Source: Tricharina praecox
Taxonomy: Eukaryota
Direction of reading: 5' to 3'
Assembly (NCBI RefSeq): GCF_024521635.1
Contig: NW_026250436.1
Location: 62,001-126,000, forward strand
DNA length: 64,000 nt
This document shows positions 21,248-62,102 of the stretch, in pieces (the stretch's first letter is position 1; each line of letters begins with the position of its first letter). A program made the position numbers and the translations under genes. Under the pieces are notes generated by a model. The model searched no databases. It was not told the origin of the DNA and saw nothing but the letters and a program-made list of their open reading frames with translations.

Positions 21248-22379
21248 ACAATGCGATGTGAATGGGTGGGCCAGCGAGATGCTTCTAGTGCACACTCGAG
21301 CAATGACCATACACATGTCTCCCCAACTAAAGGCAGTCCAAAGGCAGTCCATCGTAAAATCAAGATCAAGATCGAGGGAAGAGAAGAAGAAGGTTTGGTC
21401 TTATGTAACGGCAACGCGAGAGATCGCTGTTCAGCTCCTGCACTTCGTATCCACCATTAGACCACTCGAAGTCCGAGGTCAGAGACTGTGAGTAAGAGCA
21501 AGAAATTACCGTTGTGGATGTTTATGTGCCGGGTGGGTGTGGATGTGGTTGTGATGTGCCGGCTGGATGTGGTGTGCCGTATGGAATACGGGGTGCGTTG
21601 CGTAGCGGGCTGCGGGGTGCATATGCAGACTGAAGTTAAAACTGGGACTGGAAGCTGTGAGTGGTCGCGGAGTGAACGAAGAAAAAAAGGAAATATGTAA
21701 AAGGTTAATGAGGGTGTCTGGCTGGCTGGCTGGCTGGCTGTGTCTGGCTGTATCCATTGGGTATGGTGTACGGCGTAGAGAAACCAGTAAGCCTTTTGGG
21801 GGGATTATGGATGTAGTACGGATGGCATCACTCGAGCTCGCTCGCGTGGGGCTGATCACTTCGTGACTGTGAGGTGCGTTCTGCACCGCTGGGGATCGGA
21901 GGGAAGCTGGGCGGATCTGTGAGGAGACAGGAATGAGGTAGGTATAGTGGGTATAGAGCTTGCTAGAGCTTGCTAGAGCTTGCTACCTAGTACGGGAAAG
22001 TCTGGAAAGTCTGGAAAATCTGGGAACGTTCGAGTGCGATGAGTGCAGTGAAGCCAAAGCCCAAATTCTGGTATGTAGAGGTTGGAGCCTGGAGAGTCCG
22101 GCGTGCTTGAGCAGACAAACGGTTACGCGGGTGTGGGCCGGAGGCAGCAGCCTGGGGGATACGCAGCGGTCAACTTGTGACCGTCTTAGAATCACCATGC
22201 AGTACCCACCTCTGAGGAAGGGTGAATTGGAGTTTGTGATTCCCGCTGGACCAATCACGGCAAAGTGCAAATCCTCCGTTCTAACTATTCCAAGGAAAGA
22301 TAGAGTACAGCTGTCAAAGCTCATTCACGGCGTCATCCGACAAGGCTCGACACATATCCACAGCGCAGACAAGAGCTCT

Positions 22380-22608
22380 CAGAGTCAATGGCGAGAGAGA
22401 ACATCAATTTGAGTTGTTGCATACGGCCTTACTAGACTTTGGCGACTACTCAGAGTCAATGGCAAAGAGAGAGAGATCTTCAGTTTATTTCGCATGCAGC
22501 CTATCTAGACTATGGCGAAGCGTCGCACTCCTTTCCTGCCCACTCTGTCCAGCCGGGAGTTGAAACCCTGTTACCAGCCAGCACGATGGGGCGCCCAGAG
22601 TCAATGGC
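22380..22608 (+). repeat. Degenerate tandem repeat of about 72 bp marked by three exact CAGAGTCAATGGC copies
   Basis: The 13-mer occurs at 22380, 22451 and 22596; CTAGACT(T/A)TGGCGA also recurs in units 1 and 2. Confidence 0.8.
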
Positions 22609-25600: not shown

Positions 25601-28600
25601 GATCCCTCCACGCCGAGCTCGAGGATCTTTCTATTTGTGGGTCGAGGTGAAACGGCCCACGGGCCACGGCCTATGGGCCTTCCGACAGCCTATGTATGCT
25701 ACAGGGCTGAAGCAGCAAGCTCGAGCTGACCCTACTGACCATTTAGCTAGCTCTCACTCGCTGCACGTGTGCTCCTCCGGGGGGCCCATCTCGAAGTCGA
25801 GATCTTTTCAAACAACATGCAAAGCCCGGAACGGAGCCGCGACGACCACGACCACGTCGATGATGATGACGATGATGACGACGGGCCCAGTGGCCGAGCG
25901 CCTGCAGAATTTCTGCCCCATGATCTCAGTGGGGGGGCTGTGCGTGTGTGCACTGTGGTGGAGTAAAAAAGACAAAAAAAGGTTATTTCAATTCCCCGCA
26001 CTCGTGTTGGCCGGACGGGGGACGGGGGGGACGGGGGGGGCTCGGCGGGGTTGATGTTGGGCCGTACATGCGGTATTAGAGCAACGCCCGCCTCTGCGAT
26101 TGGCCCGGGCGGTGACGGCCATCTCCAACGCATGCCTCCCTCAAGAAAACCGCTCGTTCGCGATCGCGATGTCGACGCTCACTCCCCCCCCCCCAACCCC
26201 ACCAATGGCCGCTCCACACAAGTAAACATCCATGCGGGAGCCCTTGCGGCCTGCGGCCGGGCGCGCGATCGCGATCGCAATCTACGGCGGCGATCGGGTC
26301 CCAGACGTGGCTTGACGTTTCTTTTTTGCGCGTGGAGGATGCAAATGTAGGCATGCCGCGCGCAGAATCCAGGCGCGCTATCACTGGACGATGTCTCGGA
26401 GGGGGATGAACTTTGTTTCGTTGTGTTTGGTTGGTGCTGGGAAAGCATAATACCGTCAACGTCAACCCGCAGGATAGCATCGGTATGTATGGAGTACATA
26501 CGGTACATACGGTACATACATCTAGAGGCGGTCGAGATGCTGCTTGCCACCAGCCCCCCTCCATCCCCCCGCTGTCAACGCAGATAGATCATAGGTATCT
26601 CCCTGGCACTCCTATCTACACACGCGTCGCCATAGTTACATTATCCATACTGACATACATACAGGATACAGGTACATACATACCCAGAATGCCTACTTAG
26701 ATACACATCATATATCCCGCCTGACGGCCTGCCGCTTAACCTCTGCGGCCGCACGTCTGGGACGATCGTGCGTCCGTAGCGAGCAGCAGCAGCAGATCTC
26801 CGATCTCAGACATAAGGATGGTCAGTAGGGACGCGGACGCGGGCGGGAGTGTTGGTGCAATGGTGCCTTGGGCTTTTGGGGGCGGTCTGGATTCTGGAAT
26901 CGGCGGTCGAAACGGAGGTCGCTCTCCCTCACTCACACTCACACACATACACACGTAGGCGGGGTGGGGATGGCTATTCACGGTGCGACTGTTTCAGACA
27001 GGCAGACGGTGTTCCATCCATTCCATTACGTTTTCGTTGCGTCGGGGGAGATGGGACAGATGGAAGAGCTGGCTGGCCTGGACAACGCAGTCGTCTCCAC
27101 TCCCGCTTCACCACTCCACCACCGACTTCACTCCACTCCACTCGGCTCCGCTTTACTCTGTGATAGTACGTGGAAGGAATGAATGAGCTCAACAGATTTC
27201 GTGTGCCGGAATTCGCGATCGATAGACAAACAAAACAATATGGCAATCGCTGAGGGGATAGGTAATGTAACTATGTGGCGTTGTACCTAGTCAGTCCGCC
27301 GCTTCCGCCGCACCAACAACCTTGGGGGCGATCGCCAATTCCCTCACAGCTCAGCACGGCTTCTTTACCTATCGGATCACGGCGGCGCCGCGGAACCGTT
27401 ATGTATCCGTCACGGACCATCACTCACGCAGTCAGCAATGTCAGCATTCGGTTCCGGGGCAGCGGTTCGTGAACCTGGCTTTTCCCTGGAGCAGGTAGCC
27501 AGTTGATCCCCTTCCTTATCTGAGCGGGGCACGCACTTGCCTGCCTGCCGTTGGCCGGCCATACGCATGCTAACTAGTTGCTAGTTACATAGATAGATGT
27601 TTCGCATGGCGTTTAATATGCCGCCGCCAAATCAGCAGCTGCAGATCTAGCGCAGAGTTTCGACAGCGAAGAACCGAACGTCAGCCTCACTATTATTATT
27701 CCATCCCTCCCTGGCTCCCTCCCATCCTTCCCTTCCCTCGCGCCGCTGTCCTGCCTAGGCCCGCCCAACCGGAAGCTATCGATGGGAAAAGAACCCGGCG
27801 TGCATTAGTTAGCCAAGGCGGCGGGCGGGCAGTCGAGCGAATTCCCCTCTCTTCCCGCAGTTTCGTCTTCTTCCTCGAGCGTTTTGCTCGGCTTCTGACG
27901 GGGCGATGTAGTTAGATACCGTGCTCCGCCGCCGAATGACCATGGTCCACTGCCCGCAGTGGGTTCGAATCCGTTCTCTGCGGCGCTCGAGAGCTCGTGC
28001 ATAAGCGTGTGGTCACAGGTGTCTATGTATGCTATGTATGGCAGAAGAGTACACGTACTCACGCGTCGTTGGCGAGCGAAATAGAGTAGGCTGCTACGTA
28101 ACAGCTTGGGCCCTCGAAAGGGGACCATCATAGGATGGATGGAGGGAGGGATGGATGGAGGGAAGGATGGATGGATGGGTGAGCCAGGGGAGAACTTCAA
28201 GAGGCGACTTTCCGTTGACTAGCCCAGACCACTCGCTGCGGCGGCGACGGATGCTACAGACTAGTTTACGGCTTAGGTAGTACGAGTACGTAGAGTACAT
28301 ACTTGGTAAGTTGGTGCCGTAGTCTGCCTCCATCAGTTAGGGCTCGATTACAAGACAAGAAAAGAAAAAAAAGCAAGAAAGCCCATGATCTGAGCAGTTG
28401 AGTTGCGAGGGGAAAAAAGAAAAGAGGGGTATGTACCTAGACTACTGTATGTAAGAAGTATGTAAGTGTGTATGGATGGCTGTATGTACTCTATATCAAG
28501 GGTGGTGGCCGGAAGGAACATGTGTCAACGCCCTATCACGACCGTTACATCAAGATGTTTCCGCCGTCCGGCGCGGCCGGCAGGTAAAGTAGGCAGTCGC

Positions 28601-29032: not shown

Positions 29033-30028
29033 GAAAGCGGGGCCCTGGGGAGGAGGAGGGGGGCGGTGAGCGGGGGACGGGGGGCGGGAAAGTGAAGAAA
29101 AAAATAGCAGCAGCGCTGTCCTGTCCGTCTGTCTCGTCGTTGCTCTTGCCCCGTCCGTCCAGATACAGCAATGATCATGGAGGTTTAGAGTATGCCTCTT
29201 CCCAAAGCGATCGAGATCGATAGCCATGGCGGTGCCGTGCGTAGATCAGAGATCTCAAGCAGCGCATACATACCTACATATCTACATACACCAGCAATAT
29301 GTACCGCACAACCTCGAACTACATACAGACTTAGGTACACTACGCACATTGGCCGCTGTGCGGGCGCGAAAGATGGTGGAGGTGAGGGGGGAGGGAGGGG
29401 GGAGGGGGGAGGGGGGAGGGGGGAGGGTGCATTGGCATTGGATTGGAAGATTGTGTATGGCTCCATCCCCCCAAAAAACTCTGAATGTATCTACTCCCTT
29501 GCCTAATCTTTAATCCTCACAGTAGTCTACATACTTACGGCGTAAGATATTTCGAAACCACGCATCGTAGCGCTCCACTACGGTACTATGCTGCCTTCCC
29601 TCTTCCCCATGATGGATGGGCATCCGCATCTCTGCTTTTCCCCCGATCCCCGCCAATGATGATGCTCCACCACTCCTATCGCGCAACAACAACAATAACA
29701 ACGTACAAAGTACTCTACTCTAGCATAGTGCAGAGGGTAGGCTATGAGTGTACATGTCTGGTACTTACTACCCACCAGCAGGAGGACATGCCACACGGGG
29801 CGGAGGGGCATCAAAGCGGGCGAGTGAGAGCGGCAGCTCACCCATTAGAAAGGCATATGTGGTTAAGCATTCCAATCCCACCCACAGAAAGCCTACTCGC
29901 TCACTCGCCCGCCGTCCCCCCCAGCCAGCCAGCCAGCCATCCAGCCAGCCAGCCAGCCATCCAGTCAGCCAGCCCATCCATCCAGCCAATTCGTTTCATC
30001 GGATTCTCTCCAAACCCCGAACCCCGAA

Positions 30029-30029
<1 letters not shown>

Positions 30030-30076
<47 letters not shown>
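30030..30076 (+). repeat. Poly-C homopolymer (47 nt)
   Basis: Read directly from the sequence. Confidence 0.95.
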
Positions 30077-33000
30077 ATGCCCCCTCCTCATCCTGTGGGG
30101 CGAAGCGGGAAAAGAAAAGAAAAGAAAAGAAACATCTTCTCTACTATAGTACCTGCCGGCCGTCCAACCAGCCAGCCCAGTCAGCCCAGCCAGTCATCCA
30201 GCCAGTCAACCAACCACGGCCCACGCTTGGAGAAGAATCATGTTTTTTCTCTTTCTCTTCCACGTCATCATCCAGCCCGCTGCGATTCAGGAATCTTCTG
30301 TTGCATACATACACAATGATACTATCTATACATACTCGAAAGGAAAAGGAAAGGAAAAGGAAAGGAAGAAAGAAAAAAGAAAACTCACATGGCAACGGGA
30401 CGGGTGTGTTGAAGTTTAATCTTGCTGGAAGCCCGGAATTCCGAATGGCGATGTGTATGTATGTACATACATAGAACGGAGCGGAGGAGGCGATCGCCGG
30501 AAAGAAAAAACAAGTACATATCTACATACCGCTTGTACACGGCCCGCCCGCCCACCGGCTACTACTCTGGAGCAAATGTCCATTGCCCATTGCCTACCTA
30601 CCTACCTATCATACCACGAGTCCACAGCTAGGCTAGTTTCGTTTGTAGACGAAAAGAAAAGCAAAGCCAATCCCGTCCCCCGTCCCCGTCCCTCCCCCGC
30701 GCGTTCGTTCGTTCGTTCGGTTACTCGGTTCCAACGGTTTCAGTGTCAGCTCCCCCTCTCCCTCTCGCTCCCTCTCGCTCGCCACCCAAGCCACCGAGAC
30801 TGAATGTCTGAAACCAATAGTTGCCGTCCGCCATCGGGCTCGGTAACACTACTGCTACTACTGCTACTACTGCTATGTGCTCTACTATCGCCATACATAC
30901 ATAGGCCATACACACATACATACAGAGCATTAGAACAGGCTTCTATAGCTCCGCAGGTATAGTGGAATACCTACGGGGTCGTGGTCGGGTCCGGGTCCGA
31001 GTACGTACTCTGCTACTCTACTACCTATAGCCAACCACAGTCCGGCCCGCCCGCCGAGTGATGGCCGATGCCACCGCCGCAAGCCGGGGAGGTGCGCTGT
31101 GCGGGAAAAGGTGATATCAATAACGACAAAAACAACGACAACAACTCACAGGAAATCAAGCAGCCAGTCAGCCAACCAGCCGACCGGACATGGCTACACT
31201 CGTCCCAACAACCAGAGACATGTACTTCCTGTACTTACTGTACTGTACAAACGACATCACCCCACAGACCACAGGCCACAGCTACAGGCCACCACGACAG
31301 CTACACCTAGCTATCGTACTCCACAGAATACCGTAGCTAGCTTGCCCCACACTGCACATATCTCACAGCTCACGATGCAGGTATGCCTGCGGCATACCTA
31401 ACTTCCCGCACACCGCCGCCGCCGCTCCGCTCCACTCCGGGGTACATACGTCCGCCCTGTGCCAGTGGGCTGTCTGCTCTGTATGTTCTGGCTGGCTGTC
31501 TCTGCCCTGCCCATACACAACTACCTACTACTGGTACTCTATGTAGTAAAGTAGCCAATGCCTGCCTGCGAGAAGAAGAAAAACACATACATACATACAG
31601 ACAGACAGACAGATAGAATTAAGCGCTCACCTCGGAAAAACTCTGCCCTCCCTCCAGGCTCCCTCCCTCAGAGCTTCCGCTCAGAGACTCGGCAGATGTC
31701 TGTCCGTCTGTGTGTCTGTCCGTCTTTCCGTCTGAACTATCTACGGCTCCCCGGTCCCCCATGTCTCCCACTGCATGTCAGTGTCCATGTCAGCGTCTCC
31801 CTACAATCCCAAATGTCGGTTGCCCAACCGCCAACCGCTCCCATCCACTTGGCCTGGTCCAATCCTCCTGGTTCAATCCGCCTGGTTCAATCCGCCGCAA
31901 TGGAATCCGGGGTTCGAATGGTCCGACAGGACAGGAATGCTAGCTCGTTGGCTCGTTGGCTCGTTGGTTGGCTGTTTGGCAGGACATTGGCAGTTGGCGG
32001 GGGAGGGGGGAGATCGTGACCTCGTGCCTGCCTGCGTGCAGCAGTGGACGCGCAGTACTAGTTCAGGTAGCTATCACTCGCTCGTGATCATGTTCCATGA
32101 CATGACATGACAGCTCCGAGCTCTGAGGTGTACCTACATACATACCTCCTACATACCGGTACAGTTCTTCAGGCAAAATACTACATATGTACGGACAGAA
32201 AAGCCCGCTAGAGAGAGTTGCCGTAACATAACATGGAGGGGAGGGAAGGAATACATGCTCTACTCCATAGGTTCATAGGGTCCATAGGCAGGTTCCATAG
32301 GTATCAATGTATCATAGGTATCATAGCCTCATAGGATGAGCTTTCCGCCCATCCATCCATCCTTCCTTCCCAGAGCACTCTAGATTACCTAGATATTGCA
32401 GCACCGATCGATCATTCGCCAATTGCCTCCCGCAAGCTAGGTACAAGGCACTAGGTAGGTCGTTATAGCGGCGGCGGCGGCCGTCCCAACTTCCAAACTA
32501 CCGGTCCAATGCCAATGCCAATGGAAACGGCAATGCCATGAAAATGCGATTCACAAGCCAGCCCTGTCCAGACTTCAGAGCGATCCCGTCATCCTGGAGG
32601 AGGTTTTTCCGAAGCTTTGTTCTCCCGTTATTTTCCTTTCTTTTCTTCTTTGTTTCTTTTACGAATACGTTAGATCAGTTACCAGCGAAGCTCGCACTAC
32701 ATATCTGCTAACTACTCTAGTGGAGTAACTAACTAGAGTCAACGGCCAACGACGAAACGCTTCGGCTGCTTACGAGGTTAGCTAGAAAGGTACATAGCTG
32801 GGTAGGTAGCCGGCCGGCCAATCATGTCGGGGCCTTGCCACACACCCGTCACGAGCGCGCGCACTCTGGAGTTGGTTGGTGGCTTGGTGGGTGGCTTGGT
32901 TGGTTGGTAAGGTATGGTGGGATTGGAGAAGAAGCTGGAGAAGAAGAGAAGAGAAGGGAAGAAGAAGAAGAAGCAGGGAAGAACAACAACAAGAAGAAGA

Positions 33001-33488
33001 CTGGGAATACCTACAGACCCTCCGGTACCTGTTTTCCCTTTCCCCTCCGTCGGCACTTCGACACTTCGGTGCCGGAACCGTCGAGCGCACGGCGGCGGAG
33101 TGGAGTGTCACTCACTCCCTCACTCACGAGGGATCACCCCGCCCCCTCCCCTCCCCTCCCCTCCCCTCGAGGAGACCGTTATGCATACCCATAGCATCCC
33201 ATATGTACCATGCCATACCATACCACAACCACCCTCAGTGGCGAGACAACACGTAGTGTATGTATGTAGAGTACGTAGCCCAACCAAACCCATTCAACCC
33301 AACCCATTCACCCCCCGGCAGGCCGGCGCCCCAAGTTCCAACCAACGTGCGTGCGTACGTGCGTACACTAAACATGCCCACCTACATACATAACTACCCA
33401 CCTACATAGCTACATCCGCTAGCATACACACAGGTACAAGAGTTATGTAGAGTACGGTCCCTCGGAATCGGAATCGGAGATCGCGCAC

Positions 33489-33603: not shown

Positions 33604-34106
33604 CAACCGCCAGTCAGCCAGTCAGCCAGTCCTCGCTGTGGCACCGCATCACTGGCCCGCTGGCCGCACGGACCCACAGCCTACATTCAATGCGCAGAGC
33701 TCTGCACCCCAGAACCAGAACCAGTATGTACCCAAGTCTAGGAGTCCGAAGTCCAAGAGTGCCAGGAGTCCAGAACGGCCGCTCACGGGTGCGGATTCCC
33801 AGTGCGACCGAGTGGTAGCATGAGCAGCAGCACGAGCAGCACGAGGATCTAGGTAGGTACCTGGTACTCTATCTATCCATGATGTGAGAGAAGGGGAAGG
33901 GGGGAGAAAGGAAGGGATAAAAAGCGAAAGAAAAAAGATAAAGGATAAAAGAATAATAAACGGCCCGAAGTTCAAAGCTCAAAGCTGTCCTCCTGTGGAA
34001 GGTAGAGTAAGCAAGCAAGTGCTTGGAGTCGATCAGTCAGCCCAGCAAGTCCAGCAAGCCAGTCAGCCCATCCACCAACTAAAGATACACCTATACACCA
34101 TACCCA

Positions 34107-34162: not shown

Positions 34163-35817
34163 CCTCTACCCTACATAGATAGACGGGAAAGATAGGGATC
34201 CTCTACATGATAGATAGATCTGCAAGCCCGCAATCGCTCAATTAATCAATAATATCCACCAACGCAACGCACAGTAGGTACAGCACAGCACAGAGAGTGA
34301 GGTGAGACTGACCGACCGACTGACTGACTGCACAACTGCGAATATTTGAAGAGAAAACTAGAGTACTTCTATAGTAATACATGAAGTACAAAGATAATAA
34401 AAACGCTTTTTTTCATCCGACACAGAGGGAAGATAGAGTAGGTAGACAAACAGAAACAGGAAGAAGGAATGAGGCGGAAAAAAGAAAAGGAAAGGAAAGA
34501 GAAGGAAGAGAAAATAAAAACCTCATTCACATAGTGACTGATACAATATTATCGCACACCCCACGCTCGCTCGATCGCTAAAAACAAATAAAAAAGTCAC
34601 GACAGGAAGCAAAAAAAAAGACCAAAGTGACGGGAGGCAACCAAAAATGAAACGAGATTCGAACATATTCATGAACTGCACAGCATCATGTATCATAAAA
34701 ATAAAAAAACACCCCAAAAGTTGCCTCATTGAACCCGTTTATTGAGTGCGAAGAAACCATCCACCCTCCCAAGAGTTCCCCAATATCCTATCCTACCCGC
34801 CCCGATTCCCTAAACCATCCATCATTTGATCGCTTCCAGCAATTGCGCAAAAGAGGAGAGAACGAAAAGACAACGCGAAAGGAAAAACATAGAAAAGAAG
34901 AGAAGAAACCATCCGTGAACCCGTAATGCGTGAAGAAAGGAAAGAAAAGAAACCCAAAAGAGAAGATAATCCCTGCCTTTTGTAACAAGGAATTGAAGAG
35001 AATCCGTTAGCTTTTTTTTTTGTCCATTCCCGAATTTGGCCTCCCAACATCCCCCGTAATCCAGCCCAAGCCCCATACCCTCCTTCACTGTGCGCTCGCC
35101 CCGCAGCCAAAGGTGCCGTCAGTCCCAAACCAGTGTTCCTTTCCTTCCACCCTTCCTCGTACCATTCCTGCCGTGCCATGCCCATCCTTGCCGTCCTCCC
35201 ACCTCCATATTCCCTCTCGGATGTCCCCGGAACGATAACTCCCCAGTGTTGATAGCAGTCAAAGAAAAGTAAGATGTAAACAAATGCAAGCAGATGAGAT
35301 GCGTCAAAAAACAGTCCAAAGAAAAGGAAAAAAAGCCCAACCCGATACCCGCAAGGAAACAAGAGCAACGCAAGACAGAAAAGCAGAAACAATAACCCAA
35401 GCACAAAGAATCGCCTAGATAAAGCAGATACAAGAAGAAGAAAGTAAGAGAATAGACGCCACATCGCAAGGTGCAAACTGCATGTGCATATCGAGGATGG
35501 AAAAAAAAGTCCCAAGTATAAAAAAACAATGCAAGAATCGAATCGATAGACAGCCGTAAGCAGGATAGGGAAAACCGACAGAACACGAACGGCCAGGGCC
35601 CGAGCAAAGGTGCGCCTCGCATGTGTACAAACGTCCCAATATGTGACACTTGAATGGTAAGGTGGGACGACCAGGAAGGTGACAGGCATCAACAGACCCG
35701 TTGAGATGTCTGTCTGACTGTACACCTCCAACGTTGAAGTTGACCGTTTCCGTCGTTTCGTCGTTGGAACCAAACAAGACCCTCTCCCCCTCTCCTCAGA
35801 AAATTCCAAGAGACAAT

Positions 35818-38068: not shown

Positions 38069-38198
38069 TCGCTCGATTGTCGGGGGGTTCCGGGGCGAGT
38101 GGGTTTTTTCTTTCGAGGTGCTGGTGTTTTTTTCTTTTTTTCTTTCCTTCTTTTCCGGGCTGAGTTCTGTTGTGGTACGTAGACTCGAAACAAGAAAT

Positions 38199-45831: not shown

Positions 45832-45914
45832 CCGTCGGCGCAGTCACCTCGTTTCTGCGATGGTTTCGACTTTCGACCGCCGGCACAGTCGCCTCGTTTC
45901 TGCGATGGTTCGAC
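45832..45914 (+). repeat. Two-copy tandem duplication with a 45-bp period
   Basis: CCG(T/C)CGGC(G/A)CAGTC(A/G)CCTCGTTTCTGCGATGGTT(T)CGAC at 45832-45870 and 45877-45914. Confidence 0.9.
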
Positions 45915-48900: not shown

Positions 48901-51900
48901 GGGTGGCAAGGCGGCCTATCAGAGGGATCGGCAAATCCGGCTGGCATAGCCTTCCACGGCTGGACGGGACGGATATAATGAGGAGGAGAAGAAGAAGCTC
49001 CACCGTGGACACCCGTAGCCGGTCGGAAACGCCATGATTGCATGTATGTGGCGACTGCGGCGAGACCATTTTCCCTCGGTATCTGTAACGCCCGCCAGTA
49101 GACCGCCCCCTCCCTCTAACTTTCACCACCACCACCATCACTACCACCTCCTCCATCATCATCACCACCTCCTCCTCTGGATCCTCCGCAGCAGAGAGGG
49201 CAGGAAGCCTTGCAATCAATCAATAAGCTCTTACGTATAATTACTATATAGCATTGGTCCTTCCTTCCTTTTGGTGATGGCGACTGGAATTAGCCGCACG
49301 TCAGAACGTTATGGATGGATTATTGTCCAGAACACAGCATGCGACGCGCAGGAAACAAGCAACACCACCCCTCTCCCCCAATGCCCGAATCATCCAGGCG
49401 GTTGCGTTCCTGATCGAGAATTACTGCTGGGATCGCGAGAATCGCTTGCTGGTGTCTGTCGCTGTGGGGGATTTCCACATCCACAATCTTCCTTCTTTGG
49501 GACCGCACTCCCACCTTCCATCTCCTATCTACACTACCTGCCTAGGTATCTATCCATCGGTCCGCTATTGTTATTGCTTCTGTTTCTGTTTCTCGATGTT
49601 TCGATGTTTCGACTATGCTAGTATACTACTACTCTAGATGGTTTCCCTCATATTCCTGGCGCCGCGGCATGCGGGAGGGTAGGGGAGGGGGGTGGATTGG
49701 ACGGGGGACAACCGCTCTTTGCGCAGGGCTGCAGTGGCGATTTCAAGTTTGCAACCCAAGTTACTCAATTCAACCCAACCCCAAGAGTCCAACCTCAAGA
49801 GTCCAGGTCCAAGACTCCGCGGCGACCGAATGGCCCGCATGGCCCGCATGGCCCGCATGGCCGGTCTGGGGCGCGCTGGGCGAAATCTCCGGCTCCCATA
49901 GGGAGTACACCGTACACACCTGGTTCATCGGGGATTTGCCTGGCCATCGGAGATGCGTGAGGTGCGCCTGCCGATTCGATTCGTGTCGCGCTTTGCTTGC
50001 TTTTTTGGTTTACGGGCTATGAACTATGAACTATTGCCTGGGGAAATGGGGATGAGGATGGGGGAATGGAAATGGAAATGGGGCTGTATTGCTGCTACTG
50101 CTACTGCTACTGCTGGTGCTGTGGTGAATTGAATGTTCTGGGGGGATGGAGCAACTCGAGTCTCGGACTCGAGGAGTGCTTGGGACTGGGACTAAGGGTC
50201 TGGGTTCATACTTGACTACATACGAACTTGAAGGGCATGACCCTGACGACGACGACGACAATGATGCTTGGATTGGATAAATGTGTGTGGTCGCCGTCGC
50301 CGTCGCCGGTTCTGATATGTGTTGGACCGTGGTTGCCATTGGAGCTTAGTTATTTTTGCCTTTCCCCGGATTTTCTGGAAGTATGTAGAGCTCGCAGACT
50401 CGCAGTGCGCACATGTATGTAAATAGTACTGTATGTGGGTAATGTACACTAGGTAGAGTACTGTACATGGCATTACATGGAAGCGGAGTGCAGATTCCAA
50501 GTACCATACCTACCAAACCTACATACCTACATCACCTCGCAGCCTTGTAGATACTCGTACCCGTGCACATGTTTTCACCACCGATGACTGCTCACCGATA
50601 ACTGGCCAGCCAAGCGAACCAACTGCCCGTTCATTCCACGACGTACTCTACTCTAGTATTCTATGAGCACACGATCTCGTCACGCCGATGTATGGATGAG
50701 GAGGGGATGGATAAATTGGGGGATGAGGGGGATTCGTCTCGCTCCGTACCCGATCCTTGCCCAGTCCGTGCCCGATCCCGGAGAAGGGGCGCAGAGTGGA
50801 GTGCAGCGGTGGTGGAGCAGAATGGTGGTGGTGGTGGAGCAGAATGGTGGTGGTGGTGGAGAATACAGATCCGGACCAACATCCAACATCGAGCATCGAG
50901 CATAGCAGACGATTGTGGGTTGGGTTGTGGGCTGTGGGGTGCTGTGTGCATGCGCGATGGCGGAGTGATGGAGGGCGACGATGGAGGGCGGAGGCTTCGC
51001 GGGGTTGGCCGAATCATTGGGTCCCCGGCCCTCCCCCCCCGGCTCAACGTTGAACGAATGGGAGGTTTCGGCATGTAGAGTACGGTAGAATATGGTTGGC
51101 ATGGAGGGTTGGCGTGGAAACTGCGCAGACAGAGACAAGACAGAAACAGGGCCGGGCACGGTGCAGCGGTGCAGCGGTGCAGCGGGTCTCGATCTCGCTG
51201 GAAACCTCGTGCATCGGTCGGTTAGGTCGGCCAGCCGGCTTCAGGATCAGGAGCAGGATCAGGAGCAGGATTGAGGCTCAGGAATGAGGATTGCCGCTCT
51301 GCCGCTCTGCCGCTCTGCCGAGTCTGCTGGCCGGGTCTGGACTCTGGACACTGGAGTCGAACTCGGACTGGAATTCTACATAGACGCAGACTTGAACTCT
51401 GGAATCTTCCGCCGAGAAGCTTCCGCCGAGAAGTAACTTTGAAGTCTGAAGACGCCGTGCGGCCTGTCCTGTCCTGTCTAGCCCCCAGTGTCCTGTCCGC
51501 CCAAGGCTGCTCAATCGCATGACTGTTCACTGTCCACTATCCACTGTTCGCCCCCCGGCCCTCGCCTACTGAGCCTACATACAAAGCCTACAAAGCCCGT
51601 AAAGCCTACCAAGCCCGTAAAGCCCACAAATCCCGCCGGCCTCGAGTACGTACGAGCGTACGAGCGATGTGGTAACAAGGTAACAAGGTAACATTGTATG
51701 TAACAGCTTGCGTGGGAGTGTGTTTGGTATTTGCTTCTTTCTTCTTTTTCTTCCTCCTCTTCTACTATCATACAAGGTACTACCGGTACGGTGCTACGGT
51801 ACTACATCATCTCGTTGAACGTTCCCGTTCGAGGTCTGATTCCCGCCAGCCTGCCAGCCAGCCACGGCCTCACAACAGCGTGAGATTGGATACCGGGAGG

Positions 51901-52604
51901 GGCCGGGGGGGGGGGGGGGGAATGGGGCTGCAATTGCATAAGTTTGTGTGCATGTAACAGTCATGCTCATTGCTCTTTGCTCATTGCTCAGCCCATGTGG
52001 TGCGAGGTGCGAGGTGACGTTCTGGCGTTTTTTTTCTCTCGAGCTCGAGAGGGAAAAAGCAAAGAGCAAAAGAGAGGGCCATGGGAGGTGCAGACTCAGT
52101 GGCTATTGGGCAGTGGGCTCTCGGCGGCGGCCAAGGCCGTATGTTACCTACATTGTTGTTCGGCGAAGTTGCACTCCGGTTGGTTGCTGCGGTGCTCGAT
52201 ACGCTACTAGGTGCGAGGTTGGTACCATTAACTGAACAGACGGACAGACAAGCCCGCGATGATGGCGTTCGTTAACCATCATACGGTATTTGAGATGGAA
52301 GGAAGTAGACAGTGAGCACGCAGGAAACGAAACGCTCGCTGGCGGGCTGGTCGACTGGCTGGCTGGGAAACTCGGTACCCGTAGTTACCTGTACCCGTAC
52401 CTGTAGAGTACCTGTAGAGCACGGTGATTGTGATTGTGATGGCTCGTTCTCGTCTCGTCTCGTTTCGTTTCAGCATCTGTACGCTGCACGCATCATCACA
52501 GGTATCTAGTGCCTACATTACATGGAGCACGGTAGAGCACGGTGCCGGTACTCTACGCAAGGTGACACGGCGACACGGTGACGCCCCAATGCCCATCGCA
52601 TCGG

Positions 52605-52653
52605 CCACCACCACCACCACCACCACCACCACCACCACCACCACCACCACCAC
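52605..52653 (+). repeat. (CCA)n microsatellite, about 16 units
   Basis: Read directly from the sequence. Confidence 0.92.
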
Positions 52654-53342
52654 TGCCACTGCCACTGCCACCCCTCACATCCATCCACCTTCCACCCACG
52701 GAGACACGCGCGAGCGAGCGAGCCACGCAGCGAGAATCAGGCACGCCTCGCAGCGCAGCCCGCGGCGTCGATTCCGAATTGCAAAGTCGTCTGTGTAGAG
52801 TACGCACCACCTACTGTGGCTACTCTGGCACCCAACGACGGAAGCAAGTCGAGCTAGACATGTAGCTAACGCGACGGATCGCCCTCCATTGCATGTCTTC
52901 TTTCTCCGCGCATCACATCACATCCCCTCGTCTCCCATCCCCTCGTCTCGTCTCCGCCACCGGCGACTCGAGGACCCCCCTTCCCAAAAGCCGAAACACT
53001 CCTCTCTCTCTCGCGGCTCGCGAGAATACCGTATGTGTGATATGTAGAGTATGCAGTGAGCGTTCACACACGCCATGGTGCTGTGCGCGGCGCGGCCCAT
53101 GCAGATTCCGTGCGGCGCTGTGCGGGCGGCATTGCAATCCGGCGCCGGCGCGGCGAGGGTCATGGTCCACGACGCCGAATAAATACGTAGACCGGGGGGA
53201 TCCCCCGGGAGTTACTGCGTAATGCCCGATCCCTATCCCTATCCCTATCCCTTCTCTCGCTCGCTCGCTCGCTGGCACGCACGCACTTGCGAGTGCCTTC
53301 CTCCTCCTCCTCCATATGTAGATACCCCGGATTTTTAATACT

Positions 53343-53398
53343 CTCTGGCTATGCTATGCATGCTCTGGCTATGCTATGCATGCTCTGGCTATGCTATG
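53343..53398 (+). repeat. 20-bp tandem repeat (CTCTGGCTATGCTATGCATG)x2.8
   Basis: Read directly from the sequence. Confidence 0.95.
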
Positions 53399-54896
53399 TG
53401 GGTACACGCATAACCACCATATGTAGAGTACCCACTCTATCCCTCGGACCCCACACTGACTGACGATCATCACTTCCGTATTCCGTATTCCGTCTAGGTA
53501 TGTAGGTGAACGTCCGGGCACCGCTGCTGCTGGTGCTGCTGCCTGTCTCGTCAAGCCACATCATCTGTAAGAAAGAAAAAAAAGGGAAGGGGGGTATCGA
53601 AGCGGTGCGCTCGCTCGGCTTCACGTAAGTAAGTAAGTCATGCTGCACACTGCCACCCCGCCGCGGCAGGTAACCGCCACTCCCACTCCACTGATAACGG
53701 CCGGTGGCAGGGCACAGGGTGGGAGCCCAGCTGGGAGGGAGGCGCACCCCCCGTTCACGCTTCTCCTCGAGTTGCTCAAAGATATCGACTCTACATATCT
53801 GCTCTACCTAGAAAGATACTCCAACCATCGCACCCCCAGCCAGCCTCGGGGGCCGGGGGCCGGGGTGTAACTACTGGGCATACATAACGCAGCGCAGAAA
53901 GGCTTGTCTTCGTTCGGTCCGCGAAGAAAATCCTCTAAAGGCTACTAGTTTTCGTTAGCTGCTAGCACTAAGAGCTCTACCGAGAGTGCGCTCTCGCTTT
54001 CAACACACACAAACCAAACCAAAACCACAGACGAGAGAGAGAAAATTCCTGCAACGCCATCTCGATACAGGAAGCCATCCGAAACGAAACGATAGCGAAT
54101 CCCCGTCCTCGTCCGCGTACATACGGACCGCCCGCGCCCCAGTACCCGAGTACCAATTTACCTACATACTGCGTGTGAGTACATAACCTATTATTAAGCG
54201 CTGACCACAGTAGTCCAGTGTCCGCAGCCCATTCAAATTTCAATGATTCAACGGTTTTTTTTATCCCGCTCTGAGTCCCGACGGGCTGTTGTGTTATGAC
54301 TGATCCTCAATGCTCAAGTTCATGGCGTGTGCATCACCGTGGTGGTGGTGGTGGTGGTGGTGGTGGTGCGTATCCGCTTCGGGCTGTGCGATGCGAAAAC
54401 GTTTCAGCGCGGGAGGTCGAGATGGGGCCACGCCGCGCCGCCCTATGGCATTGGGATTCGCGATTGGCGTTTGGGATTGCGTTCGTTCCGTTCGTTCGTT
54501 CGGCCACAGCCCCGCTGGGTGGGAGCGAGCCCACCCACCCACCCAACCGGGCGCGCAGTGCGGGCAGGGGGGTCGATATATCTACATGGTCTAGTCTTTG
54601 TGATCACTGGCTACTGGCCACTGGACAGCGCGCGGCAGCGAGTGCCGAGTTCGGTGAGATAGATGCTTACATAAGCAACTAGTCACGAGTGATGGCGAAT
54701 GCATAGATTCCTAGATATTCCTAGATATCTGTATCTGTATCTGTATCCGATGGGGGGTCTGTATGTAGTGCTCTGGGTACTCTAATGCACTCCACACTCC
54801 ACAATCTCTTGCGCCAATGGCCGACTCGACGGGAGGGTTCAAGGGACTTGTTGCTTTGCTTTGCTTTGCTTTTCCCCACAGATATGGATCTTGCTG

Positions 54897-54897
<1 letters not shown>

Positions 54898-54971
<74 letters not shown>

Positions 54972-54972
54972 C
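54898..54972 (+). repeat. (TGCC)n microsatellite, about 18 units
   Basis: Read directly from the sequence. Confidence 0.95.
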
Positions 54973-56077
54973 TTGGTGGTGGTGGGGATGCATGATTACT
55001 CTGCTCGGAGCCTGCTGGAAGCTGGAGGACTGTCCGACTCTCACGCCGCGCGAACTGAAGCCTGAAGGAGGTTTGGGCTGGAAGTCTGGAAATTATTCCT
55101 ACCGTATGTAGATACTGCAGGGTGGGAAGGTAGGAGGGTTTTTGCTTCTTTTTCCTGGAATTTCCTCAGCTCAGCTCATCCACAGCCGCTGCGGCGCTGT
55201 CACTGCAACCGAACGAGCGGGTGAGCGTAGGTATACTGTGGCCATGCCTATAGAGTACTTCTGCAATTCAAGATACCGTATGTATGCACTGATACTGATG
55301 GACAACGAAGTTCGAACCCGAAGCAATCGAATTGCAGACTGATGCAGGATAGCCAGCCACCCAGCCATACTGATTTGCTCGGGGGCAAGGAGGCCAGGGG
55401 GCATACCTATGGTACAAAACCGAGACGAGAAAATGGCTCTTCTTCGCTACACACTACAGTAAAACTACAGTACTACTACCTACAGTACTACAACTGAAAG
55501 TAATGCCGAGTAAAATGAAGTGGAGACCCGACTTGTTTCGGTACGGAAGTTGGCGCAGCGGTAATGAGGCCGTCCCTATGTACGGTACATAAACACAGTA
55601 CTAACCACAGTATACTCACGTCCGAACGGCTCTTTGGCTTGTTTAATTTACATTCAGGTACCGGTACCTGAAGTCCCGGACGGTATCATACGCTATACAC
55701 CTATGCTAGGTATAGGTATGAGTACATGCGGCAGGGTCCATCCGAGCTACTCCTCCTATATCCATATGCGAGCTCCTCATGTCGCCAGAGAGAGAGATAT
55801 CTCGGCGAGCGAGGGCCAAGATAAAATGTTCTTTTCTTTTGTTCGAAACGACTAGGGAAGGTTATCTCCCACCTAATTCAATCAGTAGAGTAGGGGGAAG
55901 ATACGTCCTTGACGTTCGCAGTTCCTGCTCCTGTTTTCTGCCCGCGTCTTTGAGGCGGTCGAAACGCTGCCCCCCTGGTAACTATGCGTGCATGTAGGTA
56001 AAGTACTGTATGTACTCGATCCTCGCCGAAACCCGGGCGATGCGCTGCGCAGTCGTACTCTACTCTACGTATGGGGA

Positions 56078-56967: not shown

Positions 56968-59900
56968 ATGTTGATGATGATGATGAGGTTAAAGAAGAAG
57001 AGGAAGGAACGAACGAAGGGAGGGAGGCGTGGCGGCGGCGTGGCGGCCTGGTGATGGGGATTTTTTTTTGCTTCTTCGTTCCCAGAATCCCTACTGCTGC
57101 TGCTGCTGCCGGTACTCCTGCTACTGCTGCTGCTGTGTTGCTGATACCTGGTTGGCCGGCGACGAGATGTGGGATGAGGATGTCATGGGATGTTCGGCAG
57201 GCAGGTACATGCTAGTACCTGCCCACTATCTACGTCCCCCCCGTCCCACCGTACACGACAGCGCGGGGTGAGCTACCTAGGTGTGCTGAGTGGATGGATG
57301 CGGCCCCCGACACCGGACGCGGAGACGTGGTGTGTGCTCGTCGTCCACATGTGCCCACTCTACATGCTGTGCCCGCCGTACGTACGTGGGCCTGTGCTTC
57401 CACCGTAGGACTGCCCTTTTGGTGCTTCTGGGCTCTGTTTGCAACACATTAAACTTGCCGGTCCTGCACAATCCCTCAACCGGCACCTTTTCTCCTTCTA
57501 CCGACGTCTGGCTGTCTGTCCATCTGTCTGTCTTTCTGTCTGTCCGCCCGGCTGTCCGAACCATCTCGAACACGAACGAACGGGACGTCGAGACGTTGAT
57601 GTTGAGGAGCTGATGTTGCCTATCAGTCGGGGGCCATCTTTTTTTGTTGGGCCAGGCCTTAGACGGACGTGGACATCCCACACAGTTTCATACGCCGTGG
57701 GGTTTCGGTCATCGGAAATTCGGTACGTACGTACTTGCTCCTTCTAACTTGCATCCTTTCCACTAAAATCTCCACAGGGCGAGCAGCAGCAGCGGAAGTC
57801 AGCAGTTCAGCAGTCAGCAGTCGCCGGCCCCGCGGGGCGGTACGTACAGTACGTACCAACTTCATGGAGCATCGTCACCGCGGAGCTGAGATCACCTGAA
57901 GGGGAAGGGGAGCAAGGCACCAGCAGTGAAGTGTGGGGTTTTCAGTTACACACGGATTCGCAGCTCTTTGCTTTTGGCGGTGGTAGTGGCCGCGGCGTAG
58001 GAATGGGAGACGTCTTTTCCCATTCCTGTACCTCTCGCGTGCCCCCCTTCACTTGATCCCATCGCTATTTCTCCTCCGGCGCTGCTTCTTTTTCCGCCCC
58101 CGCGGCGGGAGTGCGATGGACACTGGTCATGGGCCGCGTGCCCATCTTCTTCATCCATCGCATTCCTAGGCTATACCCCGCCGTGCTCTAGTATCGCACC
58201 GCAGTCATCCGAATCCATTGGCATTTCGTTTCGTTTCGTTTCGTTTGTTCGTCTCTCCCCTCATCCCCGTGCGAAGCGAAAAAACAAAAAGGGTCACTGA
58301 CGCTTACATTTTCTTTCCTTTTTTCAGCTCGGGGATATGGGTTATTTTTTTTTTATTTTTTTATTACCCTCCGCAGTTACACACAAGGATGAGAGGGGTG
58401 AGGGGAGCTTTTGCTTTGTCGCCAGGAACGCGCAGAAGTTCGAATTCGAGATCCGCAACTGACCAGTGACCAGTCGACCCCGCGCGCGAGAGCGGTGAAT
58501 CGGAACCCACCCAAGCCTCTTGAGAGTCTGCTCTTAGTGGAGGAACCGAACAGAATGAAGAAGACGGGGCAGGGGCAGCATGCGGCAGCATGGTGATCTC
58601 CTCCGTCTTGCGCCTTGTGCCACTCGACGTACCTCACCATGTACCGTACCAGCGTTCACTTCCAGGTACGGGTCAGGTGACGACGAAGCAGGCCCCCTCC
58701 CCTCACCCCCTCACCCCCTCCCCCACCTCCACCGCCATTGCCGCGTCGAGCGCATGTGGGGGAGCACCTGGGGGCGTGGGAGGGGGATACGGGTTGGTGA
58801 GGTCTCAGATGCGTGCAACATGTCTCATTTTCGTGGCCATGGTCGAGTCGTCTTCAGATCTGGGTTTCGGCAAGCAGCAGGACAGGACAGGGAAGGGAGG
58901 GGGGTGGGTTTGGTGATGGGGGAAGGTCTGAGCGTTCGTACGTTCGTGCAAACAACCCATCACGTACCCAACACGCAAAAAAGGAAAGAAAGGAAAAAAG
59001 TCCCCGGAACATGGGGCTGGTGGTGATGCGGAGAGTTACGGTATGGCTGGCGGGCACGTGCACAGAGCATGATGTTGCGTTGTGATACAGTGATGTCACG
59101 ATTTGCCCTCTCCACGTCCGTGCGCCACTGTCATCGTGGTCTGTGCTGCGAGAGACAGGGCTGGGATGGGGCTGGAGGCTGGGGGGCTTGGATGGTTCCG
59201 AGGTGCACATCCATCATCTGTATGCACGGATGGTCGCTCGCTCGTGTCATGGGATTTGCCTATGATAGGTTTCGCATCTTAGAGTTCTCTGCATATAAGA
59301 AGGTACCAATACGACCGCGGGCGCGCCGTGGTTGGTATGTAGGTGACCCTGGAGTCTGGACGCACAAAGGAACGGATTTACCATCCGTACTCTACATACA
59401 CACCTACATACGCTGATGAGTGGCCATGGTTCGCCCGGATGCAGCCCCACAGCTTCCCATTCGTTTCTCGTTTCTCTCTCGAATCTCTGCACTCTGCGAT
59501 TTCTCTCTCCTCTTCATCTTCCCGTTCCCCGCAAAAGATCCCGTCCCCTATCCGAAACGAAACACAATCACATGTTTTTTTTCGATGTTTTTCCTCGCTA
59601 TCATTACAAACGCCACAAAAGATATCAACAAAAATATTTTTTCTCACTCCGCTCCCCCCCCACCCCCTCTCGGCGCCCGCGCCAGCTTTTGTTGCGGTAG
59701 GTACCTACATGAATACAGAGATAATTAAACAATAATGCGGACGGCGCTCCCCTCCTCCTCCTCCTCGGATGCAGGCACGAACGAAACGGGAATTCGGAGT
59801 GGGGCTCGGCCTTACCTACTCTACTCTACCTAAGGAAGAGAGTACATTACGGGTGCAATATATTCATCTCCCCCGTTCTGACCGGCAACCGGTGGGGCGA

Positions 59901-62102
59901 GGCGGAGCGGTTGCGAGGGAGGGAGGGATGGGGGGTGGAGATTTGACACCTCTGTAGAGTATGTATGTACATATAATATGTACTCTAGATCTGTGGAATA
60001 CCTAGCGCGCTGCATGTACTCTACGATAAGGGGTGTGCGTGCGAACTGCGAACTGCGAACTGGTGCGAACTGGTGGTGCCGGGATGGTGATAGTGGTGGT
60101 GGTGGTGGTGGTGGTGGAGACATGACCTGACATGTGAGTTCACCGGAGATCACTCGCTTAATTCTGTGCTAACCACCAAACAGACCACAAAAAAACGCCC
60201 CCCCGGACTGCACTGCGAAGAGGCGCTGTCAGAAAACGGGACGAACGGAACGGCTGCTAGCTAGCTACTTGCTTCGCTACTCTGCTAGGGAGCGCTGTGG
60301 CGGAAAAGTGAAAATCTCTGCCAGCTCGTCTAATCCTCCCTGCATTCGATATCTGCATTCTGGGAAGGGAACGGCTGGGCTGGGCCTTGTTCTGGGGGCC
60401 CTGGGAGCCCTGGGGGGGGCGGGCGGGTGGGTGGATGGGGAGGGAGGGAAGGGAAGGGCGCGCGCGCGCGCAAAAGAAAGCGGGTACTGGTGGATCAGGA
60501 AAGTCCCCCGTCCGTTCGTGTCGTGGTCTGGTCCCTGCAGGAGATCAGTGTGGCATTGGAAGTATTGCTACTTACTAACTTTGCTAGGTACTTCAGACTT
60601 CAAACTTCTGGTGGACGCTACCTGTTTGCGGTGTTTTTTTTTAATTGATTTATTACTTTTGTTCTGGACGCGGCGGGGCAGGCTCGAATCACCATTGTCA
60701 TTGCTATTGCTAGGTATTGCTATTGCCATTTCCGTTTCGGTTCTGTTCTGTTTGCGCTGGGATGGATGGATGGATGGATGGATGGCGTGCATACGGGGTC
60801 TGGGGGATGAATGGATGGCGTGCAGCTGGTTTCTCACCCTTCGTCTGTCTGTCGCCGGCGGCGCCGAAGAGGGTTCCTCCTACCTACCTACCTACTCCGT
60901 CCGCCGGGGTGGGAGATTGAGTATATTGGTATATTGGTATATTGGGCCTCAAGTCGAGACAATGGTACCGTACTCTACTCTACGGTGGGCGGGTGGGTGG
61001 GTGGGTGGGATGTTTCAAGATACCCGATAACTACATATCTACATGATAATCTATCTACAGCGTCTGCTGCCGCTGCAGAGTTGCAAACAGAGGTGAGCAC
61101 AGCCGAACGCGTACCCAAGTGGTAGGTATGGTAGGTACTCTACTCGACTCCACCGCTAGTTGGTTGGCTTGCTAATCGTTACATACTATGGAGTATGTAC
61201 ATATCCCATATGTACATACACACCGAGCGGTCCATTCCTTATCCGCCGCTTTGCAAATACGGAGATACTATGCCCCCCCGGTGCACCATCACCATTATCA
61301 CCACCTCCAGATTCTTACCCCGCCATCGAGGGCGCTTTATCGTCGCGGTTCCTCTGACTACGGCTGGGGCTGGCGGGGGGCTGGCGAGGGAGGAGGGGTG
61401 ACTGATGCGTGCACGCATGGAACCACTGCTGCTGGCTGCATGTCCATCGTGTATGATATGTACATGCCGCTTGGGCAAGAATCAAGATATGTCTATCTGT
61501 CTGTCACGACGACAGCTCTGCTCTAGGTACCCGTCTCCTGACGCTACTCCCGGGAGATCTCGAGTCCGAGCGTCCATCTGGATTCTGCCCGCCCCGCCCC
61601 GCCCCGCCCCCGCCCCCGCCCCCAAAGCAGGGCAGGGCAGGGCAGGGCAGGGCAGGGCAGGGCAGGGCGGGCAGAGGAAAGCAAGATAGGCGACTGAATG
61701 AATGACGGGGCTGACTGGGCGGCAGAGACAGGGTTGATTTCGCTATCCATTATGTACCATGCATACTTGCATACATGGCATTGTCTATCTCTCCACCGCC
61801 CACCGCCCACCGCAGCCCCTAGGCCCCCGTACAGGCTCCTGGGTGCGCTTACGTGTTGCGAGTGTGTTGCGAGTGTGTTGCATGCGAGTTGCGTGCTTGC
61901 ATATGTGTGAGTGGGCGTGTGTGGGTGTGTGAGTGTGGTGTGAGTGGGCGTGTGTCGAGATCCGGCCGTTTCTCCATGTTTCCATTTCCGTTTCCGTTGC
62001 TGTTTCCGGTTTGCGATAGGTATGTAGGTATCGGCCGACCGACCCTGAGAACACGCCGGGACCGCAGGCAGAGGCAGGAAGCAGGAAGCAGCGCGAAGCG
62101 AT

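Follow-up and report, generated by a model that had tools for sequence, protein, structure and literature searches.

What does a short DNA word stand for when it recurs dozens of times in the non-coding DNA of a fungus and stays out of its coding sequences? The question is raised by the octamer TAGAGTAC (reverse complement GTACTCTA) in a 64,000-nucleotide stretch of the Tricharina praecox genome (assembly GCF_024521635.1, contig NW_026250436.1, positions 62,001 to 126,000 of the forward strand), referred to below as the window, in whose coordinates all positions are given. A first-pass annotation of the window saw in the word a lineage-specific, orientation-independent element that does not form one repeat family, and proposed that it serves as a site for a chromatin organiser, as a terminator of pervasive transcription, or as a modification target. 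The descriptive half of this interpretation has held up; the functional half has not, none of the three proposed roles having gained any support. The TA-NNN-TA anatomy of the word (three bases between two TA dinucleotides), sister words of the same build, chains of closely spaced TAs, and cross-species indels all favour a mutational origin at TA sites over a function. Our preferred answer, to which we give about an even chance, is that TAGAGTAC is mainly a neutral scar, namely the footprint that a TA-targeting transposon of the Tc1/mariner type leaves on excision. It draws on what was observed here: the enrichment, the seven-base core, the sister words, the chains, the restriction to non-coding DNA, and lineage-specific insertions at single TAs in truffles of the genus Tuber.

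Such a scar would arise as follows. An element of the Tc1/mariner type, possibly a miniature inverted-repeat transposable element (MITE), would insert at a TA, usually one flanked as R-TA-Y (e.g., GTAC), and the TA would be duplicated. On excision, the transposase would cut the non-transferred strand about three bases inside the element, and end-joining would leave TA, three terminal transposon bases, and TA, i.e., a net insertion of five bases. An element with CTC...GAG ends would give the scar TA-CTC-TA, which is TA-GAG-TA on the other strand, and at a GTAC target the product would read G-TAGAGTA-C, with the flanking G and C as the remainder of the target. Because each scar turns one TA into two, re-insertion and re-excision would build chains such as TA-GAG-TA-GAG-TA and GTA/TAC-rich patches, and the (TAGAG)n mini-arrays and TA chains of the window may be regarded as serial scars. 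As a five-base insertion would destroy a reading frame, purifying selection would let scars pile up in non-coding DNA only.

Enrichment and anatomy of the word

The octamer occurs at 35 exact sites over both strands of the window. In 100 dinucleotide-preserving shuffles, its mean count was 1.00 and its maximum 4, and none of the 100 reached the observed value. Markov expectations derived from the window's own shorter words amount to 1.5 (order 0), 1.06 (order 1), 1.9 (order 2), 2.2 (order 3), and 5.2 (order 4); they rise to 21 at order 5 and 32 at order 6 only because the 6- and 7-mers within the word are themselves enriched. Among the 8-mers without a period of 1–4, TAGAGTAC ranks first, with a z of 22 at order 3 and 13 at order 4. 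The patchy GTA/TAC-rich composition was modelled by summing the expectations of orders 1 to 3 across blocks of 200–5000 bases, a conservative procedure for this word, since every block keeps its own motif copies. Even the strictest setting (200 bp, order 3) yields 5.0 expected sites, i.e., a sevenfold enrichment, and the over-representation thus outlives a correction for short-word bias, the condition on which its reality had been made to depend beforehand. With 35 sites against about one expected, it is stronger than first described. An assembly artefact is excluded because an independent soil metagenome contig (X1), which spans 45251–47225, reproduces three of the sites with no differing letter. 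In agreement with the intergenic placement claimed earlier, all 35 octamers lie outside the coding mask, which covers 16.4 kb of the 64 kb, the remaining ~47.6 kb being taken as non-coding. A literature search for TAGAGTAC and its core turned up no biological use as a motif.

The conserved part of the word is seven bases long, TA-GAG-TA. This core is found at 69 sites in the window, 67 of them beyond the coding mask, and its distribution between the strands (34 plus, 35 minus) bears out the orientation independence. The base 5′ of the core is G in 35 of the 69 cases and A in 17, and the base 3′ is C in 35 and G in 24; these flanks are weak and roughly symmetric and complementary, and the profile is flat more than one base beyond the core on either side. 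Among the single-base neighbours of the octamer, the flank variant TAGAGTAG is found 24 times and TACAGTAC 14 times, all others at most 7 times. The single-base neighbours of TAGAGTA are near background, other TA-NNN-TA words excepted: the 21 words that differ from it by one mismatch occur 157 times in all where 122.5 are expected, ~35 in excess, and the seven that differ by a transition 59 times where 43.9 are expected, compared with 69 intact cores where ~5–7 are expected.

The core belongs to a family of words. The TA-NNN-TA ranking in the window is headed by TACTCTA (69, the same core read on the other strand), followed by TACCGTA (33), TACAGTA (19), TACCATA (17), and TATCATA (16), and the sister words have R...Y flanks similar to those of TAGAGTA. 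In non-coding DNA, a second TA follows a TA 4.0 times as often as expected at four bases and 2.6 times at five; for 11 other dinucleotides tested, self-spacing is at most 2.0-fold at four bases and at most 1.6-fold at five. Chains of TAs with steps of 4–6 bases are likewise in excess, with 41 chains of four TAs (2.6 expected) and 12 of five (0.3 expected); together they take up 4.3 kb, or ~9%, of the non-coding sequence (47.6 kb). A further TA lies 4–6 bases off, on at least one side, at 48 of the 67 non-coding cores. A footprint is expected to show two TAs bracketing two to four bases and to be confined to DNA that tolerates a five-base insertion, and both are found here: the information ends at the TAs, the five-base spacing excess is specific to TA, and the octamers and cores keep to non-coding DNA in the proportions given above.

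The periodicity of the word raises the possibility of cryptic simplicity, in which TAGAGTAC would be nothing else than 1.4–1.6 units of a (TAGAG)n/(GTAGA)n pentanucleotide microsatellite born by slippage. We consider this unlikely, although the resemblance extends beyond the periodicity of GTAGAGTA(G). Both GTAGAGTA and TAGAGTAG are perfectly 5-periodic, as are many other top outliers of the order-4 model, the region is rich in mono-, tri-, and tetranucleotide repeats, close Tuber haplotypes differ chiefly by slippage, and a few short but true arrays are present: TAGAGTAGAG, with two full TAGAG units, occurs 10 times, TAGAGTAGAGTA six times, and a three-unit (TACTC)n array, here read as serial TA-CTC-TA units, lies at 46318–46336 on the minus strand. 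However, only 10 of the 69 cores contain two full units, the remaining 59 being isolated and not arrayed head to tail, so that the word is not mainly a microsatellite. Moreover, the terminal C of the commonest octamer, which is the preferred 3′ base (35 C against 24 G), breaks the period, and slippage leaves unexplained why TA alone among the dinucleotides shows an excess of five-base spacing.

Another conceivable source is a dispersed repeat family (short interspersed nuclear elements, MITEs, or solo inverted-repeat ends) so decayed that only its best-conserved eight bases are left. The sites at 8727 and 9133 do share long flanks, and two sites have the longer similar string TAGAGCAG(G/A)TAGAGTA. 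The former similarity is due to the position of both sites within one 406-bp tandem repeat; thus, the flanks, which the first-pass annotation called unrelated, show no extended similarity at most sites and are clearly related in this pair. Together with the lack of information more than one base outside the core, the repeat search of the window, which returned only mono- to tetranucleotide low-complexity families and this single tandem repeat, argues against a decayed family and agrees with the earlier statement that the sites do not constitute one. Such decay would have eroded the octamer as well, yet decayed variants are scarce, and we regard this origin as very improbable. The tandem repeat itself (8640–9520; unit of ~406 bp, two full copies and a part, 84–92% identical) is placed just downstream of a mitochondrial-carrier gene, and its copies differ by TA-bounded units, with TACGGTA(T) facing an empty TA and two TAGACTA units facing three. 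CpA-to-TpA deamination of CAGAGCAC was considered as well and dropped, since precursor-like words are scarce: C stands at position 1 in 2 of them and at position 6 in 5.

TA-bounded words in Tuber and other relatives

A metagenome scan seeded with a CBM21 alignment (the CBM21 gene of the window is described in the next section) provided 39 loci for comparison. Three Tuber species are represented by L006, by L007 (with L008 and L022), and by L009, their proteins being 86–91% identical to those of T. melanosporum/T. magnatum; L003, L004, and L005 are Wilcoxina-like loci (82% protein identity). The core TAGAGTA is missing from L007, L008, L009, and L022 (12.9–22.3 kb each; ~1.1–2.3 expected). It is found four times in L006 (1.85 expected), six times in L005 (1.8 expected), and four times in L003 (1.1 expected), i.e., with an enrichment of only about two- to threefold. 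Thus, the word itself is lineage-specific, as the first-pass annotation had supposed. The excess of TA pairs at five-base spacing amounts to 2.6 in the window, 2.0–2.5 in Tuber, and 1.2 in a Wilcoxina-like locus, and in seven distant loci (at most 41% CBM21 identity) the ratio of 0.9–1.4 indicates no excess. At one distant fungal locus (L019:1-20746, CBM21 ~39% identical), TACTCTA/TAGAGTA is the commonest TA-NNN-TA word, with 8 occurrences against 1.6 expected, four of them being TAGAGTAC, and the general five-base TA-TA ratio is only 1.3.

The Tuber loci carry TA-bounded words of their own, which gives substance to the annotation's suggestion that other filamentous fungi have comparable words; a literature search for the two examples it gave, TACGGAGTA and TACCTCTA, gave incidental occurrences only, e.g., in primers. 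The top word of these loci, ACTCGAGT/TACTCGAG/GTACTCGA, is the palindrome G-TA-CTC-GAG-TA-C, with the same CTC/GAG bases as in the Tricharina word, and its inner part TACTCGAGTA is found nine times in the 22 kb of L009. Also enriched in the non-coding DNA of L009, L006, L007, and L022 are TACCGGTA, TACCGTA, TACAGTA, and TATCATA.

How these words arise can be read from a three-way alignment of L009, L007, and L006, which share ~86% identity over 13.5 kb, most of which is non-coding. The TACTCGAGTA sites are mostly insertions private to one species, and only two TA-bounded TACTCGAGTA sites of the aligned L009 block are common to all three. A single orthologous TA is empty in L009, filled as TA-CCGG-TA (TACCGGTA) in L007, and as TA-GTC-TA in L006; at another, the three species have TACTCGAGTAC, TACGAGTAC, and TACTGTAC, respectively. 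Longer additions are built of the same kind of units. Where one species has cattGTACttgg, another has cattGTA-CAGTA-CAGTA-Cttgg, i.e., ten bases (CAGTA twice) added at a GTAC; a 15-base insertion beside a lone TA consists of CGGTA, TCGTA, and CTGTA; and a 27-base insertion specific to L009 is the chain TA-CTCGAG-TA-CCGG-TA-...-TA.

Counts of clean-flank indels point in the same direction; they come from four pairwise Tuber alignments that are not mutually independent. Among 29 five-base indels, TA stands at both boundaries of 12, no other dinucleotide accounts for more than 6, and 5 are tandem duplications. TA-bounded events make up 5 of the 16 ten-base indels, 1 of the 63 two-base indels, and 2 of the 43 three-base indels. 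In a strict three-way set, where TA represents 5.1% of dinucleotides, the fraction is 4 of 7 for five-base events versus 0 of 81 for events of 1–3 bases. Given the private insertions and the TA-bounded five-base indels, the Tuber words arise by insertion at TA: they are created where (N)3-TA is added to a TA already present, again and again in identical positions. The same figures count against slippage as their source, TA-bounded events exceeding tandem duplications by 12 to 5 and the clear cases adding bases that the empty allele does not have, such as CAGTA in cattGTACttgg. Within species (L005/L003/L004, L007/L022/L008, and L001/L002), nearly all indels are due to slippage, and no fresh five-base TA scars were seen.

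An insertion at TA does not of itself demand a transposon. Breakage at R-TA-Y followed by error-prone or templated repair, or palindromic additions of the hairpin type, might target TA equally well. Indeed, the Tuber insertions took place with no element in sight, the scans of the window and loci yielded no convincing source element, and several Tuber words (TACTCGAGTA, TACCGGTA, TACTAGTA) are palindromic, as hairpin opening would make them. On the other hand, the inserted bases are few and specific (GAG/CTC, CGG/CCG, CAG/CTG) and, unlike hairpin-derived additions, they do not repeat the adjoining sequence; of these triplets, CAG corresponds to documented Tc1/mariner ends and CTC to documented Stowaway ends. 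A mutational process of this kind, operating independently of transposition, therefore appears to us quite improbable.

Positions of the sites and their gene-poor setting

Three exact matches to TAGAGTAC, all on the plus strand, fall in the gene-dense half of the window, at the coordinates reported earlier: 3237–3244, which is non-coding by the mask, and 8727–8734 and 9133–9140 in copies A and B of the 406-bp tandem repeat. The range 22301–61142 holds another 32, of which 31 had been listed, each of them correctly, and one (59387–59394, minus strand) overlooked; the strands are exactly balanced, with 16 matches each. Those on the plus strand begin with 22301–22308 and 28291–28298, the latter within a GTA/TAC-rich TA chain, and continue with 33267–33274, 33448–33455, 34359–34366, 41685–41692, and 42214–42221. 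Then follow 45262–45269, 46262–46269, and 46287–46294, the three that are the same in the independent metagenome contig, and farther on 50454–50461, 51076–51083, 52404–52411, 52796–52803, 53424–53431, and 55251–55258. The match at 52404 is part of a plus-strand chain of eight TAs at 4–6-base spacing (52376–52416). On the minus strand, a second TAGAG unit precedes the match (TA-GAG-TA-GAG-TA at 29710–29717) in four cases, the others being 50643–50650, 56055–56062, and 60970–60977. The neighbouring matches 44641–44648 and 44650–44657 are 9 bp apart, and the rest of the strand has 28486–28493, 31534–31541, 33864–33871, 44805–44812, 52548–52555, 54777–54784, 59980–59987, 60016–60023, and 61135–61142 in addition to the one overlooked. 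Over long non-coding stretches the density of the core is fairly even, at ~1.3–1.8 per kb.

The term gene desert, used at first for this region, overstates its emptiness, for it contains a gene and spliced low-level transcripts; gene-poor is a fairer label. The gene is represented by a 691-amino-acid (aa) open reading frame (ORF) with a CBM21 domain at 36143–38218 on the minus strand; its product, a protein phosphatase 1 regulatory subunit, shares 100% identity with one that NCBI names as a Tricharina praecox protein (Pezizomycetes, Pyronemataceae), its next relatives being those of Sphaerosporella (68%), Wilcoxina (67%), and Pyronema (65%). RNA contigs of two runs support introns at 36129–36191 (61 nt) and 38198–38301 (102 nt) within the gene (36000–38731). 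Third-position GC periodicity marks coding DNA at 2.3–20.5 kb, at 36.1–37.5 kb, and perhaps at 56.7–57.2 kb. A Pfam scan of 102 ORFs of at least 118 aa from the gene-poor part found no transposon or other convincing family, and Rfam and ARAGORN gave no match over the window; splice-site, branch-point, tRNA-derived, and RNA-family origins of TAGAGTAC were considered and set aside. In L005, L006, L007, and L009, the 10-kb flanks of the CBM21 gene also have few long ORFs (14–20 of at least 130 aa per 18–22 kb in six frames), and the gene-poor setting of this gene may be conserved across Pezizales.

Several other features of the window deserve mention. Its commonest 8-mer is CCCCCCCC/GGGGGGGG, with 100 occurrences over both strands. 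Tetranucleotide repeats, (CCTG)n, (CCAG)n, (CATC)n, and (TACA)n among them, are abundant, and there are long homopolymers at 21220–21247 (~28 G), 30030–30076 (~47 C), and 38866–38888 (~23 G).

Transcript evidence consists of assembled contigs, which do not reveal transcript ends, and stretches without RNA cover are not to be read as silent. In the contigs of the two runs, whose joints are of the GT..AG type on the minus strand, coverage is deep over the CBM21 gene (X3 ~3,500–3,900) and thin (3–250) over much of the gene-poor region. Low-level, partly spliced minus-strand transcripts are seen over 38200–56000 (e.g., 39666–41145, 41523–42110, 42675–43376, and 47495–50049), and CT..AC contig joints skip 40120–40178 (57 nt) and 45502–45639 (136 nt). 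Having neither a Pfam domain nor third-position periodicity, these transcripts may be long non-coding RNAs.

This weak transcription and splicing is one of the observations that would suit a selected cis-element, be it a DNA site of an abundant chromatin or regulatory protein or a termination or surveillance site in RNA, perhaps recruited from scars. Like the site of a transcription factor or general regulatory factor, the word is short, dispersed, strand-independent, and non-coding; its density is fairly even, and it is sharp, with 69 intact cores beside an excess of ~35 over 21 neighbours, as either purifying selection or recency would produce. At odds with a factor site are the lack of a degenerate halo of the weight-matrix type, the enriched neighbours being other TA-NNN-TA words only, and the membership in a family of TA-bounded words whose different middles one protein would not explain. 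Nor is the word shared by the orthologous Tuber locus: four of the five Tuber loci lack it, its enrichment in L006 and the Wilcoxina-like loci is only ~2–3-fold, and the Tuber analogues originate as insertions and turn over fast. The literature search, as mentioned, shows no such motif. Selection for a cis-element is thus, in our opinion, improbable. The narrower proposal that TAGAGTAC is a selected signal for a putative chromatin, insulator-like, or termination factor that organises weakly transcribed tracts is more doubtful still; transposon scars may have seeded such signals originally, and if so, the scarcity of decayed copies would reflect constraint and not youth.

Proposed excision scars: parallels, difficulties, and meaning

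Scars of the TA-NNN-TA or a similar type are familiar from several transposons: TACCATA/TATGATA is the classical scar of the mariner element Mos1, and TACATA/TATGTA that of Tc1. If these assignments apply here, a further part of the word spectrum of the window is explained. For Sleeping Beauty, the canonical Tc1/mariner footprint is given as TACAGTA/TACTGTA (PMC6943129). The Tricharina word has the same seven-base layout of TA, three bases, and TA, is likewise read on either strand, and corresponds to the same net five-base insertion at TA; the window even holds 19 copies of TACAGTA/TACTGTA with similar flanks. It differs in its middle, which is GAG/CTC and not CAG/CTG, and no donor element is seen in the window.

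A closer parallel as to the bases is offered by the plant Stowaway/mariner elements, which have the terminal inverted repeat CTCCCTCCRT and a TA target (PMC1925063; see also PMC4561436). Their natural footprints are described as TACTC...AGTA, TACT...AGTA, and TACTCC...AGTA, with the same TA being entered and left repeatedly (PMC1925063). As in the inferred Tricharina source, the element ends begin CTC...GAG beside the TA duplication, and the footprint pattern accommodates TACTCGAGTA of Tuber together with variants such as TACGAGTA. Differences exist too: Stowaway elements are from plants, no element like them came to light here in Pezizales, and Tricharina keeps three bases and not fragments of both ends. 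As for fungi, Tc1/mariner is reported to be the most ubiquitous superfamily of DNA transposons, with thousands of DNA transposons in Tuber melanosporum (PMC5751038), and polymorphic TA-flanked elements have been described in Tuber indicum (PMC3864998). On this reading, the Tricharina sites would have been made by the process seen in Tuber, and a CTC/GAG-ended transposon would exist in the genome. Most likely, a known mechanism has been at work at an unusual density, so that a lineage-specific crop of scars has become visible as the top intergenic word. To our knowledge, the density of this one word in Tricharina, ~1.4 per kb, far exceeds that of any footprint.

A number of observations weigh against excision scars as the origin of the word, first of all the missing source. 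Scans for TA-flanked inverted repeats covered the window and the loci, and in the window TACTC...GAGTA and sister pairs up to 1.5 kb apart were looked for as well. Neither the 64-kb window nor, by the general TA-flanked scan, the 39 loci yielded an element whose inverted ends read TA|CTC...GAG|TA or GAG...CTC, and the 102 ORFs of the gene-poor part contained no transposase domain. Sixty-nine scars with zero resident copies require short residence times. Natural excision in rice is, according to PMC4423477, untidy in most cases, and there are ~2–3 resident insertions for each excision.

The scans did bring up two candidate elements. One, in the window at 26633–27273, is a weak candidate of 637 bp, TA-flanked, with inverted ends matching at 12 of 14 positions (GTTACATTA...), and these ends match no enriched word. 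The other, at L005:18574-19000 in a Wilcoxina-like locus, is a candidate 423-bp MITE, also TA-flanked, with terminal inverted repeats matching at 15 of 16 positions and ends that begin CTGTAGC..., i.e., with a Tc1-like CTG/CAG end.

The second difficulty concerns age. Few one-mismatch copies accompany the 69 intact cores (157 against 122.5 expected), and this scarcity of decayed copies needs either a recent burst or selection. As a rough estimate, the ratio of intact to decayed copies corresponds to a mean scar age of ~4–5% divergence, and by our own estimate the implied ratio of scars to substitutions is ~10 times that in Tuber. The third concerns repair: Tuber retains both overhangs (TACTCGAGTA) and Tricharina one (there is no TACTCGAGTA in it), and if the CTC/GAG ends were identical, this would require different repair in the two lineages.

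Direct comparison brings the scar hypothesis no help either. The contig of the closest relative (L001/L002) overlaps the window only at 34662–38618, where there is no site. The sequencing runs hardly differ from the window, with indels located in simple repeats; across the 20 kb compared, six DNA differences lie in non-coding sequence, none of them inside a site, and they have no power on constraint. The sole paralogous comparison, at the core site 8843, shows substitutions and not a clean five-base gap.

If the word were functional after all, TAGAGTAC would be a new and very abundant cis-element. If, however, the scar reading is true, the top non-repeat intergenic word of this genome region is a record of past transposon traffic, in which one family left more than one scar per kb and TA chains came to occupy ~9% of the non-coding sequence. 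For motif discovery this would be a caution: an intergenic word of a fungus may be strongly enriched, strand-symmetric, and lineage-specific without being regulatory. The TA-NNN-TA spectrum would offer a cheap, alignment-free readout of the transposon end types that were active in each lineage. Finally, cut-and-paste transposons would be a major and nearly invisible source of small insertions in the gene-poor regions of Pezizales, and a source of GTA/TAC-rich low-complexity DNA as well, even where no annotatable element remains.

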